Assembly (NCBI GenBank): GCA_031285625.1
Contig: JAITVV010000018.1
Span: 1-64,000, forward strand
Length of the DNA stretch: 64,000 bases
Origin: Prevotella sp.
GTDB lineage: Bacteria > Bacteroidota > Bacteroidia > Bacteroidales > Dysgonomonadaceae
Direction: 5' to 3'
The notes below the pieces were generated by a model that made no database searches, was not told where the DNA came from, and worked only from the letters and a program-made list of their open reading frames with translations. Positions 5,770-15,348 of the stretch are shown here, one piece after another (the stretch's first letter is position 1; every line of letters begins with the position of its first letter). Made by a program: the position numbers and the translations under genes.

Positions 5770-7074
5770 ATGAGAACATTATTTATCCTATTGTCCATAT
5801 TTTTTCTATCCCTACAGATATTTGCTCAGAAATATACTGTTTCGGGAGGCACCGGTTCTCCATATTCCTATGGTGAGAACCTAACAGGGACTAATATTGA
5901 ACAAGTGTATCTATTGAATGGGTTGACTAATGCATCTGTAACATATTCATCTTCTGCTGTATCTGTTGTTTTTTATAAATACCAAAGATCTCAGGCGGAC
6001 AGGCAGCAAATACCGGATTCGGATATCTCAATCTCTTCATTCAATAATAACACAACTTATACTATCACCAAGGTAGATGATGGTTATGGATATTTTGCGG
6101 AGGTGAATGGTAAAGCAGAAGATGCAGTCTGGATTATCGATTATAATCTTCATAAGGCTGCGCTAAATTCTATTAAACCCGATGAAACATCTGACCAGTG
6201 TGAAAACTTGAAACTACTGGTAGAAAAAACGGAGGATGAACTATCTTTCTATAGCAAAAGTGGTAATAAAAGAAATATTTTGAGAAAGTACACCTTGAGC
6301 TATGATGATATGAAATGGGATGAAGGAAAGAAAGAATTTGTATCTGACCCATATAACAGAAGCTTCGATATTGGAACAGAGGTTAATATTTCGGCCCCCA
6401 AAAAGAATACAAACTTTGTACTGAAAGGTGACCAGTTTGCAGAACACTTCAATATAGCAAAGCAAATATCAGCCAGTTATGATGCTGTAGCTGTAGAAGG
6501 ACATATTGTATTTGAAAAAGAGAACCCTGCAGGAACAGATGATGAAAGCGCAGAGAGTACAGAAAATTCTGCACCACTTACTGTGAGCTATTCTGCGAAG
6601 GCAAGCGATGCTGTGAATTTTTATACTTGGTATATATATAACGAAAACGATATGGATAATTATATTGTCCGCTATACTGATCAGAATATAAAATATACAT
6701 TTGAGCAGTCCGGAAACTTTATAGTGAGGCTCGAAGTTGCTAATACGGCTTCAGCATGCGCTTCTGATACTACCAGTGTTTCATTAAATATGGCAGACTG
6801 GGATTTGCAGGTACCTAATTATTTTTCTCCCGGAGGTACTACCAATACGGAATTTAGAGTTTCATATAAGTCAATCATAAAGTTTAAATGTACTATTTTC
6901 AACCGGTGGGGTGTCAAAGTATATGAATGGAACGACCCCGAGAAAGGTTGGGATGGAAGACATAATGGAAGATTTGTCAATACCGGAGTTTATTATTATG
7001 TAATAGAATATACAGCTTCGGATGGTAAAAAACGGAATAAAGGCGGTGATATAAACGTTTTGCGAAAGAATTAA
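5770..7074 (+). CDS. Secreted protein with PKD-like domain and T9SS type B (gliding motility-associated) C-terminal domain
   Basis: Signal peptide; YTFEQSGNFIVRL; C-terminal VPNYFSP...IFNRWGVKVY...WDG...GVYYY. Confidence 0.85.
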   Translation: MRTLFILLSIFFLSLQIFAQKYTVSGGTGSPYSYGENLTGTNIEQVYLLNGLTNASVTYSSSAVSVVFYKYQRSQADRQQIPDSDISISSFNNNTTYTITKVDDGYGYFAEVNGKAEDAVWIIDYNLHKAALNSIKPDETSDQCENLKLLVEKTEDELSFYSKSGNKRNILRKYTLSYDDMKWDEGKKEFVSDPYNRSFDIGTEVNISAPKKNTNFVLKGDQFAEHFNIAKQISASYDAVAVEGHIVFEKENPAGTDDESAESTENSAPLTVSYSAKASDAVNFYTWYIYNENDMDNYIVRYTDQNIKYTFEQSGNFIVRLEVANTASACASDTTSVSLNMADWDLQVPNYFSPGGTTNTEFRVSYKSIIKFKCTIFNRWGVKVYEWNDPEKGWDGRHNGRFVNTGVYYYVIEYTASDGKKRNKGGDINVLRKN

Positions 7075-7093
7075 TATAATTTTATTCTAAAAA

Positions 7094-7124
7094 TTTGTTA
7101 ATTAAAAAAGTTCTAATATCTTTG
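7094..7124 (+). promoter_or_regulatory. Primary-sigma promoter of the rtcB-prfH operon
   Basis: TTTG at 7094-7097, 19-nt spacer, TATCTTTG at 7117-7124; an exact match to the Bacteroidetes -33/-7 consensus. Confidence 0.8.
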
Positions 7125-7202
7125 CGATTGAAATTTGAGTACTAACCCTTTAAAAACTATGGAAAGGGTACAATTATGTTAGAGAAAAAATAAATCAGAA
7201 TC

Positions 7203-7297
7203 AGGACTAAGTTGGCTTATCGGGATGAAGAGCATTTGCAACTTATTTTCTTATATCAAATACCAAAAACTACAATTGGTAATTGTTGATTAGTCCT
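7203..7297 (+). ncRNA. Candidate structured leader RNA (three-way junction) of the RNA-repair operon
   Basis: Closing stem aggacta/tagtcct encloses hairpin agttg/caact and hairpin atcaa-taccaa/ttggta-ttgat. Family not recognised. Confidence 0.4.
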
Positions 7298-7389
7298 ACA
7301 ATCAAACTATAATTATTACGAAAGCTGATATATCGGCTATAGGTCTATTTTGTCCTTATGTCGCGCTGTATCACATAATACAATTTTTC

Positions 7390-8172
7390 ATGGGCAATTT
7401 TGCTAATGAGCGAGACCTCATTGTACAAAATAATCTGCCTGCATACCGTTGGAAAATAAGGCGTATACGTACAGCTAATGATAAAAAGTTGCGCCGGATG
7501 GAAAAAGAATATAAACGTGTTTATAATCAAATCAGGGATTTAGGTTACGAAGATCTGAATCCACCAATCCAACGAGGATACAAGCGATTGTTCGTATTGA
7601 CAGAGGAAACCAAGTATAGTAAACAAGCGGATTTTTATCAGGAACTGCTGGATAAGATAAACACAATACGATATAGTCCGCACAAAACTTTTAAAGAGAA
7701 GAAACGGAGAATCGGTAAATGGAAGTATAAAGTGCGGAATGAGCAGGCTTTACAGGAATTTGACAGCTGGACTTTTCATGATAATAAAAAGTTTACAGCC
7801 GAAGAAAAGAAGCTGTTCTACCGGGTTGAGTATTATGACTTTTCCTTGAAGGGGTATAGAGCCAAGTATGTGTTCTTTGAACCGTGGCGCTTTGCTTTGA
7901 GAGTGAAACTGAATATAATTACAAAAGTGCAGATTAAAGATTTTGAATTGGAAAAATATCGCGACGAGCTGAGTGATTATCTGGATCAGGATAAAAATCG
8001 CAGAAGACTGGTAAAAACAGTGTATGGAAGTAACACATATTCGTGGAAGAAAGTAATTAATGAACGTGAGAATAAAAAGAAATATAATTACAATTCTTTT
8101 ATAAATGTGCCTCTCCATATGGTAGAAGAAATATATAAAGAAGAAAAAGATTTAATATGGAAATTCGATTAA
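7390..8172 (+). CDS. Hypothetical, strongly basic (Lys/Arg-rich) protein upstream of rtcB
   Basis: 260-aa ORF overlapping the rtcB start by 16 nt; no recognisable catalytic motif. Confidence 0.75.
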   Translation: MGNFANERDLIVQNNLPAYRWKIRRIRTANDKKLRRMEKEYKRVYNQIRDLGYEDLNPPIQRGYKRLFVLTEETKYSKQADFYQELLDKINTIRYSPHKTFKEKKRRIGKWKYKVRNEQALQEFDSWTFHDNKKFTAEEKKLFYRVEYYDFSLKGYRAKYVFFEPWRFALRVKLNIITKVQIKDFELEKYRDELSDYLDQDKNRRRLVKTVYGSNTYSWKKVINERENKKKYNYNSFINVPLHMVEEIYKEEKDLIWKFD

Positions 8173-9554
8173 AAGAATTAAGCAAATTAGGATATACCGA
8201 CAATGTGGCTCGCAGTTTGGCTATAAATATAATAAGTAAGCATTGCAAGCATAATACGAAAGTTGAGGTGACAAACATATTGACAGATTTGTTGGAATAT
8301 CCTGAAAATTACAAGAACAATGAAGTATGGGGTAAGCTGGCAGAGCATTTTGCCCCAACTATATACGAAAAGAAATTTATGGTATATGATCTCACCGATC
8401 AGCCATTGCCATTCAAAACTTATGGAGGCAAGTTTATAGAAAGCCTGGCTAAGCAACAAATGGAGCTGGCAATGCGCCTACCCATTACGCTTTCGGGAGC
8501 ATTGATGCCGGACGCTCATGCCGGATATGGTTTACCTATTGGTGGGGTATTGGCTGTAGATAATGCGGTGATACCTTATGCAGTGGGTTTAGATATCGGT
8601 TGCCGGATGAGCTTGACCGTATTTGATGCGAAGGTAGATTATTTGAAACGTTATTCGCATCAGATAAAGGAAGCATTGAAGGAATATACACACTTTGGTA
8701 TGGATGGTTGTCTTTCTTTTCCTCAAGAACATGAAATACTGGACAGGAAAGAGTTTCAGCTCACTCCACTACTAAAAATGCTTCATGGTAAGGTAGTACG
8801 ACAACTTGGTTCGTCCGGCGGTGGCAATCATTTTGTCGAGTTTGGTGAAATAGAACTGATAGAAAATAATGTATTGAATTTACCCGCTGGAAATTATGTA
8901 GCTCTGCTCTCCCACTCCGGCTCGCGCGGTATGGGAGCAGCTATTGCAAAGCACTACAGTAATATAGCGCGTGAAGTTTGCAAACTGCCACGCTATGCAC
9001 AACATTTTGCATGGCTGGGACTCGATACTGAAGAAGGGCAGGAATACTGGATGAGTATGAATCTGGCAGGGGACTTTGCACAGGCTTGTCATGAAAGGAT
9101 ACATATTAATCTTTCCAAAGCGTTAGGACTGGAAGCTCTGGGTAATGTGAATAATCATCACAATTTTGCATGGAGAGAAGAAATCGCACCCGGAAAGTTT
9201 GCCATCGTACACCGAAAAGGTGCTACCCCTGCGGGAAATGGCGTTGCCGGATTTATACCCGGTAGTATGGCTACTCCAGGTTATCTGGTATGTGGAAAAG
9301 GTAGTCTGGAATCGCTTAATTCGGCTTCACATGGTGCAGGACGTGCTATGTCGAGACAAAAAGCAAAGGAACAATTCACTCAGTCTGCTTTGAAGAAGTT
9401 GCTTACTCAGCAAGGAGTAACTCTTATTGGCGGTAGTGTAGAAGAAATGCCTTTGGCTTATAAAGACATCGACAGGGTGATGCCTGCACAGGAGTCTCTG
9501 GTAGATATACACGGACGCTTTATGCCGCGAATAGTAAGAATGAATAAAGAGTAA
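8157..9554 (+). CDS. rtcB: RtcB-family RNA ligase with N-terminal extension
   Basis: MPDAHAGYGLPIGG, DIGC, GGGNHFVE, HSGSRG, HHNFA, HRKGAT, PGSM, SASHGAGR, EEMPLAYK. Confidence 0.96.
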   Translation: MEIRLKELSKLGYTDNVARSLAINIISKHCKHNTKVEVTNILTDLLEYPENYKNNEVWGKLAEHFAPTIYEKKFMVYDLTDQPLPFKTYGGKFIESLAKQQMELAMRLPITLSGALMPDAHAGYGLPIGGVLAVDNAVIPYAVGLDIGCRMSLTVFDAKVDYLKRYSHQIKEALKEYTHFGMDGCLSFPQEHEILDRKEFQLTPLLKMLHGKVVRQLGSSGGGNHFVEFGEIELIENNVLNLPAGNYVALLSHSGSRGMGAAIAKHYSNIAREVCKLPRYAQHFAWLGLDTEEGQEYWMSMNLAGDFAQACHERIHINLSKALGLEALGNVNNHHNFAWREEIAPGKFAIVHRKGATPAGNGVAGFIPGSMATPGYLVCGKGSLESLNSASHGAGRAMSRQKAKEQFTQSALKKLLTQQGVTLIGGSVEEMPLAYKDIDRVMPAQESLVDIHGRFMPRIVRMNKE

Positions 9555-9558
9555 AACT

Positions 9559-10050
9559 GTGGGTTGGAAAGTAGTAGAACGAAAGTTAGGCAGGGCAGGT
9601 GGTATAAAACAGCAACAGGCTCGCCAAAAAGAATGGGACAGCAAATATGGTGCGGATAACTGGATGGTTGGTTATATTATTAATGATAAATTTATTACAT
9701 CCGAAGAAGCATTCGACATTATCTATTATCCAAGCTATGTACAGCATTTCAGGAATCATCCCGAAGATTTAAACGAGTTGGTTTCTACAGCTAAAAGTCT
9801 GCGGAATCCACATGCTGAAGCTACAGGAGGTGTTGATTTACAGGTTCCTGCTATTCAGAGATATCTGAGGGAAAATAACCTGACTCTACAAGGTAGTGCA
9901 CTGATGGATATAGGCACATGGGGAAATATACATTCTCATAAACTAAGTGTCAGGGTAAGTCCCTTGCAAATCAAAGTAGTGGGCGACGACAAGATAACCC
10001 TTGAAAAATACTGGCAGGAGAAAAAAGTATTAGTAGTATGGACAGATTAA
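9559..10050 (+). CDS. Hypothetical protein
   Basis: 163-aa ORF with GTG start, 4 nt after rtcB and co-oriented. Confidence 0.7.
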   Translation: MGWKVVERKLGRAGGIKQQQARQKEWDSKYGADNWMVGYIINDKFITSEEAFDIIYYPSYVQHFRNHPEDLNELVSTAKSLRNPHAEATGGVDLQVPAIQRYLRENNLTLQGSALMDIGTWGNIHSHKLSVRVSPLQIKVVGDDKITLEKYWQEKKVLVVWTD

Positions 10051-10061
10051 AAGAAATTAAT

Positions 10062-10829
10062 ATGAAAAATAAAATAAGGTTAGACCACGAATTACCATTG
10101 GCAGTAGTTGAATGGGGTTGGAAATTTCATCACCTTGGAACTCCAACAGATAAAGTAATGCCTGATGAGACGTATTTGGCACTCTTTAAACTTTATGTTT
10201 CAGGATTTGACACAAGCCCTTTTGGCATTGAGTGGATGCGGTATGAGAAAGATTCGCCTATTCATCCGCTAATACAGGAAGTACCCCATATCTGTTTTGA
10301 AGTAGAGAATCTTGATTATGAATTAAGCATACACGATTTTAATATTATAACATTGCCAAACTCACCATCAAAGGATACAAGGGTTGCAATGATAGAACAT
10401 AATGGCGCGCCAATGGAATTAATTGAGTTTAAAAATAAAAAAAATAGTAATAAGAAAAATAAAATAAGATTGGACCACGAATTACCATTGGCTGTTGAAG
10501 AATGGGGCTGGAAATATCATCATTTGGGAATTCCAACAAATAAAGTATTGCCGGAAGAGAGATATTTACCCCAATTTAAACTGTATGTTTCAGGCTTTGA
10601 CACAAGCCCGTTTGGGGTGGAATGGATGCGATATGAAAAAGACAGTCCAATATCAGATATAACAAAATCAGTTCCTCATATTGCATTTGAAGTTGATGAT
10701 ATTGACCAGGAATTCGCCAAATATAATTTTGAAATTATTTCTGAACCAGGTATACCTTCCGATGGAGTCAGAGCAGCAATGATTTTGCATAATGGTGCAC
10801 CAATCGAATTAATAGAGTTTAGAAAGTAA
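10062..10829 (+). CDS. Tandem-duplicated VOC/glyoxalase-like domain protein
   Basis: Two highly similar ~120-aa halves (HHLG, GIEWMRY, PHIxFEV, AMIxHNGAPxELIEF). Likely ATG 10062 (track starts at 10038). Confidence 0.75.
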   Translation: MKNKIRLDHELPLAVVEWGWKFHHLGTPTDKVMPDETYLALFKLYVSGFDTSPFGIEWMRYEKDSPIHPLIQEVPHICFEVENLDYELSIHDFNIITLPNSPSKDTRVAMIEHNGAPMELIEFKNKKNSNKKNKIRLDHELPLAVEEWGWKYHHLGIPTNKVLPEERYLPQFKLYVSGFDTSPFGVEWMRYEKDSPISDITKSVPHIAFEVDDIDQEFAKYNFEIISEPGIPSDGVRAAMILHNGAPIELIEFRK

Positions 10830-11269
10830 TGACAGATTTATATACAGGAAAAGATTTATTGATAAAGAAGTATGGGTTAAATCTCAAGAATGATGGTTAT
10901 TGGTACATTAAGAAGGAAAATGCTCATGAACAATTAGTTTTTAAGGACTCATTCTTTCAAAAGAGTGACCTCATAATTATTCTGTTTCGAATTTATAAGC
11001 TTTGTTTTGCTAAGGTCAGTTATTTCAGGCGAAATATACATAAGTATGAAGCATACAAGTATCATTATAAGGATGGATTTACTCAAACAGACCTATGGGA
11101 TGCAGACTTCTTTAAGCATAAGAAGTCAGGATATATTATTGATTTCAGATTTCTGCAAACTATAACAGATATAAACATATTCTTGCAGTTAGTTGCAGAA
11201 CTAGAGTTGACAGAGGATGAGAAATATCGCGACATGAGTATTTTTTCGCGATTGGAGTCCCTGTCGTAA
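10829..11269 (+). CDS. Hypothetical protein (aromatic/Lys-rich)
   Basis: 146-aa ORF with TAATG stop/start overlap. Confidence 0.7.
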   Translation: MTDLYTGKDLLIKKYGLNLKNDGYWYIKKENAHEQLVFKDSFFQKSDLIIILFRIYKLCFAKVSYFRRNIHKYEAYKYHYKDGFTQTDLWDADFFKHKKSGYIIDFRFLQTITDINIFLQLVAELELTEDEKYRDMSIFSRLESLS

Positions 11270-11289
11270 CAAACATAATTTAAAAAACA

Positions 11290-12135
11290 ATGAAAATAGC
11301 AATATTTGCCGATATACATGGCAAGATACTTCTACCGTTCAAGATGGTGGATGCTTATCAAAAACAATATGGAGAAAAGATAGACCTGATTCTCCAATGC
11401 GGAGATATAGGAGCTTTTCCGGACATAGAAAAACTGGACAAAGCCACAATAAAGCATGCCAAAGGGGACATGCAGGAACTGGGGTTTAGCAAGCAGTTTC
11501 TTTATATCAACCGGGATATCGAACAATTTCTGGACAAGCTGGATATCGATATGATTTGTGTACGTGGTAATCACGAAGACCATGATTTTCTGGACGAAAA
11601 AGAAGGAAAAGCAACAGACTTTCGTTACCCTATCGACTGCTATCATAGAATATTTGTTTGCAAAAGCGGTATCACACAGTCATTTTGGAAAGATGGGGAA
11701 GAACTTGTCTTTATGGGTATCGGACGCATTGGTGACCGTAAACAACGGAATGACAAACGTTTTATCCAGGAATATGAACGCAGGGAAATTAAAAGGGCTC
11801 TTCATCAGGGACATAAAATAGATATTCTTATTTCGCATGATATATCTTCAGAGATGACAAGCCCCGGATTCGGCATGGACGAACTCCGGCCTGTATTGAA
11901 CCAGTTAAGACCTTTTGCACATTTCTTCGGGCATACTGGTAAACCCTATAAGGTAGAACTGGATGAGAATAAGCAGACTTTTTCCGTAAAAATAAAAGAG
12001 CTGGAATTTGATGTCTCCGGTAGTTTGCCCGAAGGTTGCATGTTTATACTTGAAAAAATAAATGGCGTGATTGAAGGAGATCCGGTTAGTATCGATTTTA
12101 TTCGTCAGTTCAATAAACATACATGGCTTTTGTAA
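11290..12135 (+). CDS. Calcineurin-like metallophosphoesterase
   Basis: Full motif set: DIHG, CGD, RGNHE, ISHD, FGHTG. Confidence 0.88.
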   Translation: MKIAIFADIHGKILLPFKMVDAYQKQYGEKIDLILQCGDIGAFPDIEKLDKATIKHAKGDMQELGFSKQFLYINRDIEQFLDKLDIDMICVRGNHEDHDFLDEKEGKATDFRYPIDCYHRIFVCKSGITQSFWKDGEELVFMGIGRIGDRKQRNDKRFIQEYERREIKRALHQGHKIDILISHDISSEMTSPGFGMDELRPVLNQLRPFAHFFGHTGKPYKVELDENKQTFSVKIKELEFDVSGSLPEGCMFILEKINGVIEGDPVSIDFIRQFNKHTWLL

Positions 12136-12306
12136 TTTCGGATAAAATTATCTAATATTATGTTGCATTAGAAGAATAGAAAGTAACAAATTAAAATAGA
12201 GGTAAAAGTGTTACTTTTGTCACCTTTTGTTTGTATTATATTGAATATTAGTATTCTATGAAAATAGAAAAAGTGTTACTTTTTACATTAATTTGAGACT
12301 TACAGA

Positions 12307-12876
12307 ATGAAAAGATATACAAAATCAGGTAGATATTATAAAAACTACTATTTAGTAGAATGTCCCCAATGTCATAAACCAGCCAATGTGGAAAAAGGAA
12401 TACTTAGCTGTCCGAATTGTATGCTACTAAAGAATGCAGATGATGATATTTCATATAAGGCATATGTAAAACGGTTTTGTCCTTATTGTGGAAAAGAAAT
12501 ATATGCTGAACAGTCGGGATTTAAAACTCCCCCGAAAGAAATAAGTGTGACTTGTTCTCATTGTCAGGAAGCTATTGAATATTCTCCGAATATTGAGAGC
12601 TACCGGAAGATATATTCTTTACCTCAGGATACAGGACTAAAGAAAGACCCTTATTTCTGCTTACCATTGTGGTTGCAAACAGAGGTGAAAGGAAATATTT
12701 TCTGGGCATGTAACCGCGAGCATCTGCAGGAAATAAAAGAATATGTAGAATCTGACCTTCGCGAACGGTTATGGCCATATCTGATGACAATGACGGCAAA
12801 ACTACCCGCATTTATAAAAGATGCGAAAAATAGGGAAGATATTATAAAGGGAATTAACCGGCTGGAAAAAAAATAA
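12307..12876 (+). CDS. Zinc-ribbon protein with four CxxC pairs and a helical C-terminal domain
   Basis: CPQC, CPNC, CPYC, CSHC; C-terminal DPYFCLPLWLQ...WACNREHL...LRER. Confidence 0.75.
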   Translation: MKRYTKSGRYYKNYYLVECPQCHKPANVEKGILSCPNCMLLKNADDDISYKAYVKRFCPYCGKEIYAEQSGFKTPPKEISVTCSHCQEAIEYSPNIESYRKIYSLPQDTGLKKDPYFCLPLWLQTEVKGNIFWACNREHLQEIKEYVESDLRERLWPYLMTMTAKLPAFIKDAKNREDIIKGINRLEKK

Positions 12877-12878
12877 TT

Positions 12879-13475
12879 ATGGGATTACTTGATTTATTAT
12901 TTCCAAAGAAGGAAGATGCACAGAAAGTGACAGAAGAGGATATGCGTAATACTATTATTAAGCTGAATCTACTTATAACAATTCTGGAACTATTTGATGG
13001 TACTTGTGCGGATAAGGTTGTTACCCGTTTGGGGCTGAATGAATCTTATGGTTTCACAAAACCATATCCAATCATCGATTTACTAAAATGCCAGCAGGAT
13101 CATTACTTAATTGACCGGTATATTCCTTTACTTGCTTATGGACATGGGACAATATATGCATATGATAGCCTTTTAAATGGATTTATAAAATACTATTTGG
13201 AACTGGGGCCTAAAGATGGGCGATATCCTACTCTTACATGGGACGGCGTATTTATTGACTATATATTCAGTTTATGGGAAAATAAGTGGATAGATGATGA
13301 TAATGAAGAATATACGAATGAGGATATAATATATGTTGGAAAATTGTTAGGCTTGAAACATATTGAAGTGATAATGGAATCCATCGTCAGGAATTTCGAG
13401 GTTGGTACTTTCAACTCTTACGAAAAATGGAAACAAGAGACGACAGACCTATTAAATGCTCATATAAATGAATGA
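12879..13475 (+). CDS. Hypothetical acidic protein, possibly immunity-protein-like
   Basis: 198-aa ORF 2 nt after the previous gene and overlapping the next. Family assignment is speculative. Confidence 0.65.
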   Translation: MGLLDLLFPKKEDAQKVTEEDMRNTIIKLNLLITILELFDGTCADKVVTRLGLNESYGFTKPYPIIDLLKCQQDHYLIDRYIPLLAYGHGTIYAYDSLLNGFIKYYLELGPKDGRYPTLTWDGVFIDYIFSLWENKWIDDDNEEYTNEDIIYVGKLLGLKHIEVIMESIVRNFEVGTFNSYEKWKQETTDLLNAHINE

Positions 13476-14022
13476 TCTTATCCATTATCACGATTTTAAA
13501 CATCATCTATTATCTGACCTGAAATGGTTAGAGAAGAACAAGGGCGAATGGGATGAAGTTATAGAACTTGATCTAAAATCGATAGGTAATTCTCAGTTGG
13601 ATTTTTATATAGGTAATCTTTCTTCTGAAAATATCAAAGCAGAGATGTCTGCATGGTTAAGAAGTCGTCAGCTTTACCAGAAAGATAATTACAAAGATTG
13701 GATCAGCGAAAATAAAGGTTTCAGGGAAGTAAAGCTTTCTGATGATTCGGCATGGACGTTGCGTATTATAGAGAAAGAGTCGTTTATACATATTCATCCG
13801 TCACGCTATTCCACGCATACTATGCGTATAAAGGCAAATACATTGAAAACAGTATTATGCACACTTCTCTTTGAGAATATATACACATTTATATTCAATA
13901 CAGAGTCGGTTAATTATTATAGGGATAAATATTTAGATTTATCTCTTGTTAAGGTTGCTGGCAACCACAATGAACTGGAGGCTGTTTTCAGCCTGTTTAC
14001 AGATAAAAGAATAAATGAATAA
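13468..14022 (+). CDS. Hypothetical protein coupled to prfH
   Basis: 184-aa ORF with 8-nt overlaps on both sides; motif-like IGNSQLDFYIG, LSDDSAW, IHIHPSR, ANTLKT. Confidence 0.7.
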   Translation: MNDLIHYHDFKHHLLSDLKWLEKNKGEWDEVIELDLKSIGNSQLDFYIGNLSSENIKAEMSAWLRSRQLYQKDNYKDWISENKGFREVKLSDDSAWTLRIIEKESFIHIHPSRYSTHTMRIKANTLKTVLCTLLFENIYTFIFNTESVNYYRDKYLDLSLVKVAGNHNELEAVFSLFTDKRINE

Positions 14023-14635
14023 TAAAATATACTTACAAATAACTTCAGGAAGAGGGCCAGCCGAATGTTGCAGGGCTGTGGCTTTAGTTTTGGAGAAAAT
14101 ATTAAAGCAAGCGAAGGATCAGGCGTTAAAAGCAGAGGTGATAGATCGTGAAGCCGGTCCGCTTAACAGGACATTATTATCTGCAACCTTATCGATAGAA
14201 GGTAAGAACCCGCATGAAATGGTTAAAGAATGGGAAGGTACAATACAATGGATATCAAAAAGCCCTTATCGTATTTATCACAAACGTAAAAACTGGTTTA
14301 TAGGTATTCAGACTTTTACTATTCCTGTCAATAAGGAAGCCAATGAAAGAGAAATCCGCTACGAAACTTTACGCGCTTCAGGACCGGGTGGGCAGCATGT
14401 GAATAAAACAGAATCAGCTGTAAGGGCTATCCATACACCTTCAGGCTTAAGCATTACAGCATCTGATCAACGATCACAACTGCAAAATAAGAAACTGGCA
14501 ACAGAACGCTTACTAATAAAACTTGCAGCATGGAATGTGGAACAAGCAATGATTGCCGCACAGGCCAATTGGAGTAATCATAACACTCTTCAACGAGGAA
14601 ATCCTGTAAAAGTAATAGAGGCTCCATTGTCTTAG
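14015..14635 (+). CDS. prfH: Peptide chain release factor homolog PrfH
   Basis: LQITSGRGPAECC, WEGTIQW, HKRKNWFIG, RASGPGGQHVNKTESAVR; about 200 aa and in the same operon as rtcB. Confidence 0.94.
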   Translation: MNNKIYLQITSGRGPAECCRAVALVLEKILKQAKDQALKAEVIDREAGPLNRTLLSATLSIEGKNPHEMVKEWEGTIQWISKSPYRIYHKRKNWFIGIQTFTIPVNKEANEREIRYETLRASGPGGQHVNKTESAVRAIHTPSGLSITASDQRSQLQNKKLATERLLIKLAAWNVEQAMIAAQANWSNHNTLQRGNPVKVIEAPLS

Positions 14636-14745
14636 ACTGACCATTTAACTTTTTCGTCGAGAGAATTTCCCTCTTTGTCGATTATCATTTTTTGGACGAA
14701 AACTTGTTCATAATTTTGAATTAACAAACTTAAAGCACAAAGATT

Positions 14746-15348
14746 ATGAAAAAGTTATTAATAGCCATTAGTATATTTTTTGCAGTAGGAATGGTTTCTC
14801 CTACAATGGCACAGAACATAAATATAAACATAAATTTGGATAAGCAACCGGCTTGGGGTCCAACTGGATACGACTATGCAGGATATTACTATTTCCCTGA
14901 TATTAATGTATACTTTGATGTGAATAATTCCCTGTTCTATTACCTTACAAGTGGGAGATGGATTTCGAACCAGTACTTACCTAGCAGTTATCGTAAATAC
15001 GATCTGTACAGCATGTATAAGGTTGTAGTAAATGATAATCAGCCTTGGTTGCAAAATAAGACACATAAGAAGTCATATTCCCAGTATAAGGGTGATCGTA
15101 CTCAGGAGCCTATTCGTTACAGTAATAATACTAAATACAATAATAGTAAGAATAATACACGAGGCTGGGTAAATACTAATTCGAACTCAAATTCGAATAA
15201 TAACAGACAGAATGCCAGAGAGAGCAGTAATGTTACTAGTAATAGAAATACTGACAGTCGGCAGACAACAAATAGGAATACTACAGACAGACAATCTGAT
15301 AGGAACTCAAGTACTACAAGGAATTCAAATACTACAAATAAAAGATAG
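14746..15348 (+). CDS. Secreted hypothetical protein with Tyr-rich domain and low-complexity N/R/S/T tail
   Basis: Signal peptide; QPAWGPTGYDYAGYYYFPDINVYFD. Confidence 0.75.
   Translation: MKKLLIAISIFFAVGMVSPTMAQNINININLDKQPAWGPTGYDYAGYYYFPDINVYFDVNNSLFYYLTSGRWISNQYLPSSYRKYDLYSMYKVVVNDNQPWLQNKTHKKSYSQYKGDRTQEPIRYSNNTKYNNSKNNTRGWVNTNSNSNSNNNRQNARESSNVTSNRNTDSRQTTNRNTTDRQSDRNSSTTRNSNTTNKR

Follow-up and report, generated by a model that had tools for sequence, protein, structure and literature searches.

Organization of the operon

The stretch analysed here (the window) comprises 64,000 nucleotides (nt) of Prevotella sp. contig JAITVV010000018.1 and carries, near its start, an array of genes that opens with a basic protein (g1) and the RNA ligase RtcB and closes with release factor H (PrfH). 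To our knowledge, RtcB–PrfH is the sole known system that rescues and reseals ribosomes cut in the decoding centre. The array consists of ten open reading frames (ORFs), all on the + strand and tightly packed, which span positions 7390–14635, with g1 first and PrfH last (Table 1). From g1 to PrfH, the consecutive junctions measure −16, +4, −13, −1, +20, +171, +2, −8, and −8 nt. A first-pass annotation of the same DNA had described ten co-oriented genes with overlapping or near-abutting ends, with rtcB near the front, prfH last, and seven genes between them. Both descriptions hold: every junction but the one of +171 nt falls between −16 and +20 nt, and the two genes exceed the cut-offs of their respective profiles, PF01139 and TIGR03072.

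Table 1. Features of the g1–rtcB…prfH locus in window coordinates.
Feature	Positions	Strand	Basis
Promoter, Bacteroidetes-type (TTTG ... TAnnTTTG)	7094–7124	+	Both boxes invariant, 16/16 aligned loci
Leader RNA: hairpin, mini-ORF MLEKK (7176–7193), long-range stem with inner hairpin	7130–7389	+	Alignment, RNAalifold
g1, 260 amino acids, basic, pI 9.7	7390–8172	+	ORF; no Pfam family
RtcB RNA ligase, 465 amino acids	8157–9554	+	PF01139
g3, 163 amino acids, highly conserved family without assigned function	9559–10050	+	697 homologues
VOC/glyoxalase-like protein, tandem-duplicated, 263 amino acids	10038–10829	+	Pfam Glyoxalase just below cut-off; internal repeat
g5, 146 amino acids, rare presence/absence gene	10829–11269	+	16 homologues; strain comparison
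MPE, calcineurin-like metallophosphoesterase, 281 amino acids	11290–12135	+	PF00149, phrog_1649
Intergenic gap, one copy of a ~115-nt dispersed repeat	12136–12306	.	25-nt core, 87 genome copies
g7 (ZnR), 189 amino acids, two zinc ribbons, C-terminal helical domain basic and conserved	12307–12876	+	CxxC pairs
g8, 198 amino acids, acidic, pI 4.6, small family	12879–13475	+	Homologue searches
g9, 184 amino acids, two domains	13468–14022	+	Alignment, AF2 model
PrfH (release factor H), 206 amino acids, GGQ, tail-less	14015–14635	+	TIGR03072

RtcB matches PF01139 with an E value of 5.9e-77 (260.1 bits versus a gathering cut-off of 27), and a search of the PDB retrieved RtcB structures with E values down to 1.9e-28. 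Residues C149, H225, H253, H334, H335, and H392, which we take to be the metal-binding residues and the GMP-accepting histidine of solved RtcB structures, are unchanged across 24 sequences. The protein is the Bacteroidota form of the ligase, which carries an N-terminal extension of ~90 amino acids, and its score against the NCBIfam model of PrfH-paired RtcB (release_rtcB, TIGR03073) is 134.1 bits, under the cut-off of 271.8. As this RtcB is nonetheless paired with PrfH, it represents a distinct Bacteroidota branch. PrfH, in turn, scores 295.8 bits (E = 1.3e-88; 295.1 bits in a genome search) against TIGR03072 (release_prfH), the cut-off of which is 166.65. It is a short protein without release factor domain 1, the RF-1 domain match extends over residues 108–185, and the GGQ motif (G125, G126, Q127) is invariant in 20 sequences. 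Judged by sequence, the core is a genuine g1–rtcB…prfH operon, the predicted role of which is ribosome rescue and repair of 16S rRNA. A structure prediction for a complex of RtcB, PrfH, and g1 scored 0.19 against a mark of 0.32 and counts neither way. In a related Bacteroidota locus (L031, positions 6703–9963), two full-length rtcB genes stand in tandem upstream of a single prfH.

The operon resembles E. coli RtcB2–PrfH (PMC9304027, PMC9223846, PMC13166195) in that one operon encodes an RtcB together with a GGQ-bearing PrfH equivalog, and in the presumed role of the pair, which is to free the peptide from ribosomes cleaved in the 16S rRNA and then to religate the RNA. It differs from the E. 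coli system in that the 465-amino acid RtcB falls below the release_rtcB cut-off, g1 stands ahead of the pair, seven genes separate its two members, and the leader is Bacteroidota-specific. A PrfH subfamily typified by the Capnocytophaga gingivalis protein (CgPrfH) is characterized (bioRxiv 10.1101/2025.01.09.632186) by a C-terminal tail and a length of 225–250 amino acids, and an EcPrfH-like class is tied there to damaged ribosomes only. Both CgPrfH and the protein described here are from Bacteroidota, but the latter is tail-less and 206 amino acids long, outside the range of the tailed subfamily, and therefore belongs to the EcPrfH-like class.

The operon is preceded by a promoter the boxes of which (TTTG at ~7095 and TAtcTTTG at ~7116) are kept in 16 of 16 aligned loci; we take the TTTG/TAnnTTTG pair to be the Bacteroidetes promoter consensus. 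The promoter is conserved across these loci together with the 260-nt leader, whether g1 is present or absent, and the leader RNA is common to loci of Dysgonomonas, Bacteroides, Tannerellaceae, and some Chitinophagaceae. RNAalifold predicts 30 base pairs in it, 12 of which display compensatory changes. The mini-ORF, which has 5 codons here and 4–5 in relatives, was detected in 33 of 78 loci by means of a regular expression composed after inspection of the data. An Rfam search matched no family to the leader and returned nothing within positions 6900–15000. In Pseudomonas aeruginosa, the leader peptide PA5471.1, located ahead of armZ–PA5470, controls a prfH operon. The leader described here is similar in combining a tiny ORF with a structured RNA ahead of a prfH-containing operon, and dissimilar in that its mini-ORF has 5 codons and the leader itself has another sequence and structure and no identified attenuator terminator.

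In agreement with the first-pass annotation, no terminator-like site was found on the + strand of the locus. The only sizable intergenic gap contains a repeat of ~115 nt (12175–12290) with GTTAC/GTCAC motifs, the 25-nt core of which occurs at 87 sites of the genome when up to 3 mismatches are allowed. Many contigs of other sequencing runs match only positions 12204–12237, and the repeat breaks those assemblies.

The rtcB–prfH junction in relatives and strains

A scan of Bacteroidota genomes with the PrfH protein yielded 80 loci, 77 of which hold both rtcB and prfH. The statement that the two genes are usually adjacent was borne out, as they lie at most 100 bp apart in 56 of the 77 loci; the distance is 101–300 bp in 7 loci, 301–1300 bp in 13, and 3976 bp in one (L004). 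The gap in the window, 4464 bp with seven genes, is the largest seen in comparison with these 77 loci. In 14 of them, the slot between the two genes is occupied, with contents that differ between loci, namely the genes for ZnR (6 loci), an NTase-like protein (5), a 156-amino acid family (2), MPE (2; L004 and L027), g9 (2; L004 and L039), and an RNase_T exonuclease (1). The ZnR family, with members at this site in 6 of the 80 loci, occurs there in Dysgonomonas and Flavobacterium alike.

The chromosomal frame of the operon reads kbl, a gene for a protein with a type IX secretion system (T9SS) signal, g1, rtcB ... prfH, dn200. Three loci share this frame; the slot is empty in L005 and L043, and that of L004 carries MPE, ZnR, and g9. 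Identity between the window and L004 amounts to 92% for RtcB, 89% for MPE, 80% for ZnR, 60% for g9, and 89% for PrfH. The three slot genes of L004 are bracketed by two GC-rich elements of 280 nt (6416–6695 and 9677–9956), which are 93% complementary to each other, internally palindromic, and resemble miniature mobile elements.

Genes also collect on the other side of prfH. In relatives, its 3′ neighbours include an RNA ligase (19 loci), an HD + kinase protein (15), Tpt1/KptA (12), a soluble AAA protein with an M41 peptidase that is FtsH-like (12; L012, L020, L023, L025, L027, L030, L033, L038, L039, L044, L047, and L065), a single-domain VOC protein (6), and further NADAR, DUF4291, Nudix-NrtR, and TatD proteins.

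Closely related strains display variation within the array itself. A contig from another study (X3) contains all ten genes at ~95% identity, which shows that the arrangement is not due to chance. In RNA-library contigs that cover most of the stretch (those of X4 and X5), 124 other letters replace positions 10825–11283 and g5 is lost; g5 is thus a presence/absence gene among strains of ~95% identity. In X2, g3 carries a 10-nt deletion. In a metagenome contig (L137) with an rtcB of 89% and a VOC gene of 99.6% identity, g3 has an in-frame deletion of 60 nt, which removes 20 residues, some of them invariant, and a H127Y substitution. Considering (i) the distribution of gap lengths, (ii) the contents of the loci that share the chromosomal frame, and (iii) the presence or absence of g5, the variable cargo slot inside an rtcB–prfH backbone, one of two possibilities put forward in the first-pass annotation, is supported.

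We also examined the linkage from the side of the accessory genes, scoring rtcB or prfH within 1.5 kb on either side of each homologue in samples of 190–300 genomes. In the order-level sample, prfH itself exceeded its cut-off in 6 of 300 genomes. VOC homologues were present in 33 of 300 order genomes, with none of 29 loci adjacent to either gene and prfH in none of the 33 carriers; g9 homologues were present in 22 of 300 order genomes, with 0 of 22 adjacent and prfH in 2 of the 22 carriers; and ZnR homologues were present in 9 of 300 phylum genomes, with 0 of 9 adjacent and prfH in 2 of the 9 carriers. These three families live mostly elsewhere, singly, in genomes without prfH.

The behaviour of g1 is different. 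Its homologues were found in 4 of 190 phylum genomes, and all four are immediately upstream of rtcB; among the 80 PrfH loci, g1 precedes rtcB in 19. The first-pass annotation had named a lack of linkage to RNA-repair genes elsewhere as the outcome that would speak against its proposal, and this is the outcome for VOC, g9, and ZnR, but not for g1. As annotated, g1 is basic (pI 9.7), and a Pfam search assigned it to no family. Its gene context indicates that g1 is a dedicated accessory linked to RtcB/PrfH, the sole one among the accessories tested that is strictly tied to rtcB. A Chitinophaga locus (L053, 7696–10001) contains three g1 paralogues in tandem immediately 5′ of prfH, and rtcB was not found within 10 kb upstream of them. 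As this trio lies beside prfH without rtcB, g1 may partner PrfH or the ribosome and not RtcB.

The cargo proteins

The g3 protein belongs to a family of 697 homologues, at ~60% identity, from Acidobacteriota, Planctomycetota, Chloroflexota, Spirochaetota, and Bacteroidota. It was found in none of the 80 PrfH loci and none of the 400 Bacteroidota genomes searched; phages and viral contigs gave no match and plasmids a single one. In the latter (L141, 7992–9017, an Alkaliphilus megaplasmid), g3 forms a fusion with a weakly Macro-like domain and lies 1 kb from rnr (RNase R). A metagenome scan with a single g3 protein and over-specific patterns returned three loci, one of them useful. The AF2 model of g3 is confident (pLDDT 91) and matches no solved fold convincingly, the best Foldseek E value being 0.29 and the best VIA Z score 3.2. 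A profile search of the PDB returned nothing for g3, and an Atlas feature search gave scores of at most 0.82, which is the noise level. NADAR/YbiA-like proteins were considered as a match for g3; the corresponding VIA rows (Z 2.4–2.7) were treated as noise.

The annotated double VOC protein is confirmed as regards its tandem duplication (390 nt, with 204 nt at 82% identity), and its score against Pfam Glyoxalase (PF00903) is borderline, at 20.2 bits just below the cut-off of 20.6. In the PDB, the search retrieved weak FosB matches (E = 0.005). Homologues elsewhere have a single domain, and 6 of the 80 PrfH loci have one directly 3′ of prfH. For g5, 16 homologues were found in 5.8e9 proteins, one of which adjoins prfH on its upstream side in L041.

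The annotation of MPE as a metallophosphoesterase was confirmed by PF00149 (44.8 bits versus a cut-off of 21.5), by the presence of the motifs DIHG, CGDIG, and GNHED, and by a match to phrog_1649 (E = 2.6e-16). A homologue was found in one of 190 order genomes (G125), which has no prfH; there, the gene is located behind two RNase_T-type exonuclease genes. We found no literature that links prfH with a metallophosphoesterase or a glyoxalase. The multi-CxxC protein of the first-pass annotation is g7, which indeed contains ten cysteines and four CxxC pairs, followed by a basic C-terminus.

The number of known g8 relatives depends on the method of search, with 2 homologues in a word search and 37 cluster representatives in an exhaustive phmmer search. 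Neither g8 nor 28 of its relatives match Pfam, and g8 has no match in the PDB. In the language-model features of Atlas, it lies near SUKH and 'immunity' clusters (0.90). An assignment to SUKH/SMI1_KNR4 (PF09346, PF14435, PF14568) was rejected: none of these profiles matches g8, a PF09346 scan of the genome skips it, and hhalign with the SMI1 proteins of the same genome gives a probability of 0.6%.

The g9 alignment displays invariant K/H/H, D, Y, H, and R residues, and its AF2 model has a pLDDT of 95. No clear fold emerged from the structure searches (Foldseek E value of 0.08, best VIA Z score of 4.5, empty BFVD result). About ten chains of RelE/ParE-type toxins align with residues 1–120 at Z scores of 3.1–3.9, inside the noise range stated for the tool and thus a lead at most, and Pfam and PDB sequence searches lend no support to a RelE/ParE assignment.

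Interpretation and genomic setting

We propose that the locus probably combines a known rtcB–prfH core with a variable slot of individually mobile, self-sufficient cargo genes, which were acquired piecemeal, are driven by the leader, and do not encode subunits of one machine. The rtcB–prfH junction, normally no more than 100 bp long, would have become an accretion site at which the seven genes were gathered step by step. The leader would turn the operon on upon ribosome stalling, so that any gene inserted behind it would be expressed at the very time of an attack on translation. The cargo, which includes a phosphoesterase, a VOC metalloenzyme, a zinc-ribbon/basic-helix protein, g3, g8, and g9, would then serve as self-sufficient tools against damage directed at RNA or translation and not as components of RtcB–PrfH. 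A themed toolbox is suggested by the relatives, since the identifiable genes that have accreted there are mostly enzymes of RNA ends and RNA repair.

A bolder generalization, which we regard as tentative and doubtful, would hold that the stall-induced rtcB–prfH operon of Bacteroidota is a docking site for a self-sufficient toolbox of countermeasures and that several of the docked genes are new tools. If so, g3 would be a new tool without a recognisable fold that has kept ~60% identity over at least five phyla, g9 may have, in its N-terminal half, a RelE-like RNase that depends on the ribosome and frees the A site for PrfH, and g1 would be a dedicated basic partner of both RtcB and PrfH.

Several observations weigh against the proposal of a core with self-sufficient cargo. 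The gap at 12136–12306 carries a TAnnTTTG-like box, and a second promoter is therefore possible; of the single promoter in the first-pass annotation, the conserved upstream element stands and its uniqueness is less certain, and the run of genes that starts with g7 and ends with prfH could form a second transcription unit. The presence of ZnR in the same slot of Dysgonomonas and Flavobacterium at ~32% identity argues for a real functional tie, although the family also lives elsewhere. The relaxed selection on g3 suits neutral hitch-hiking as much as useful cargo. The adjacency tests saw 1.5 kb per side in samples of the size given above and covered VOC, g9, ZnR, g1, and MPE. Lastly, the compared data are all contigs, and co-transcription and induction are proposed from sequence.

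A serious rival is neutral hitch-hiking, which we consider unlikely: the junction would simply tolerate insertions and have gathered unrelated, mobile small genes with no tie to translation damage. The cargo families are indeed scattered singly over unrelated contexts, g3 is decaying in two strains, dispersed repeats occur both in the gap of the window and in the L004 slot, and g8 and g5 come from tiny families. Against a neutral junction stand the recurrence of ZnR, MPE, g9, VOC, and g5 at prfH in separate lineages, the overwhelming share of RNA-repair and RNA-end enzymes among the identifiable accreted genes of relatives, and the intact and tightly coupled ORFs of the window.

A weaker rival, and in our view an improbable one, is an integrated, expanded repair machine in which the ten proteins jointly treat ribotoxin-damaged ribosomes. 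MPE would heal RNA ends, ZnR and g1 would bind rRNA, g9 would trim mRNA, and VOC and g8 would sense or neutralise the toxin. The tight packing with its stop/start overlaps and the strict linkage of g1 are consistent with such a machine, as are the reappearance of ZnR, MPE, and g9 in the slots of other loci, the position of MPE beside RNase_T exonuclease genes in G125 (the same exonuclease family being found in the slot as well), and the accretion of known RNA-repair enzymes at prfH in relatives. This agreement is outweighed by the direct adjacency of rtcB and prfH in most loci (56 of 77), by the two of three same-frame loci that lack all seven genes, by the dispensability of g5 between strains, and by the two broken copies of g3. 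RtcB, moreover, joins 2′,3′-cyclic phosphate and 5′-OH ends without prior end healing and has no need of it for such ends. The larger integrated module, the other possibility of the first-pass annotation, is not supported for the genes tested, given the unlinked homologues of three families (VOC 0/29, g9 0/22, and ZnR 0/9 adjacent), most carriers of which have no prfH. The locus thus cautions that tight operon packing is not proof of a single machine.

A third rival, which we hold to be very improbable, is a toxin–immunity or toxin–antitoxin pair hidden in the slot, in which g9 would be a RelE-like RNase and g8 its antitoxin or immunity protein. In its favour, g8 is acidic (pI 4.6), lies near SUKH/'immunity' clusters in Atlas features (0.90), and has a gene that overlaps that of g9 by 8 nt, and ~10 RelE, ParE, YoeB, MqsR, and CdiA-CT chains align to residues 1–120 of g9. 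Against it, these alignments (Z 3.1–3.9) are in the noise range, both proteins are without Pfam or PDB sequence support, hhalign relates g8 to SMI1 proteins encoded in the same genome with a probability of 0.6%, and g8 is missing wherever else g9 was seen (L004, L039, and all 22 other genomes), g9 having no conserved neighbour there.

The claim of the first-pass annotation that this is an undescribed system was too strong, as accretion around RFH–RtcB was reported in 2019. Section 2.4 and Figure 4 of Burroughs & Aravind 2019 (PMC6514570) describe accessory genes that accrete around RFH–RtcB ('RFR' domains). Among the products listed are a TPR protein, a Pol-beta NTase, a zinc-ribbon protein (one or two ribbons) that also has a basic C-terminal helix, and a charged-helix protein without homologues. 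Going by their descriptions, the last two fit g7 and g1, respectively. Counterparts of the first two were seen in Flavobacteriia, where a TPR-like family (F2) occurs in 26 loci and an NTase-like family (F19) in 5. The main text of PMC6514570 describes no seven-gene insert and does not name MPE, VOC, g3, g5, g8, or g9, some of which its supplement may list. New here are the extent of the array and the set of genes it contains, the confident models of g3 and g9 without a recognisable fold, and the conserved leader RNA with its mini-ORF.

If the operon is a landing pad for genes timed to stress, the lists of its cargo from many genomes would catalogue candidate anti-ribotoxin or translation-protection functions, and g1 would qualify as a third component that can be tested. 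The g3 and g9 families, with their confident models of no known fold, are well-defined targets for structural and biochemical work. The mini-ORF leader is a candidate stall sensor that can be tested, and it comes from a phylum in which the control of translation is poorly understood.

The surroundings of the operon are ordinary and encode an aminotransferase-class enzyme, a T9SS-signal protein, and DinB, Usp, and PAP2 proteins. An integron-like cassette array would have recombination sites repeated at the cassette borders and an integrase, but no repeat family was found at the gene borders within 6900–15000 and no recombinase among the flanking genes. A PADLOC scan gave nothing meaningful, and the PHROGs matches among the locus proteins are limited to RtcB, MPE, and the RF domain. 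No paralogues of the accessory genes were found in the 4.8-Mb genome to which the window belongs.

Two other contigs of this genome contain related genes. At the end of contig C25 (806–2857), there is a second pair of kbl (89% identity) and T9SS-signal protein (45%) genes, which may reflect a duplication or the presence of a second strain in the assembly (contamination 3.85%). On contig C37, an island at 133–147 kb encodes an RNA ligase, an HD + kinase protein, Tpt1/KptA, two NADAR proteins, DUF4291, a Macro-like protein, and Nudix-NrtR, and thereby contains homologues of seven families that directly follow prfH in relatives.

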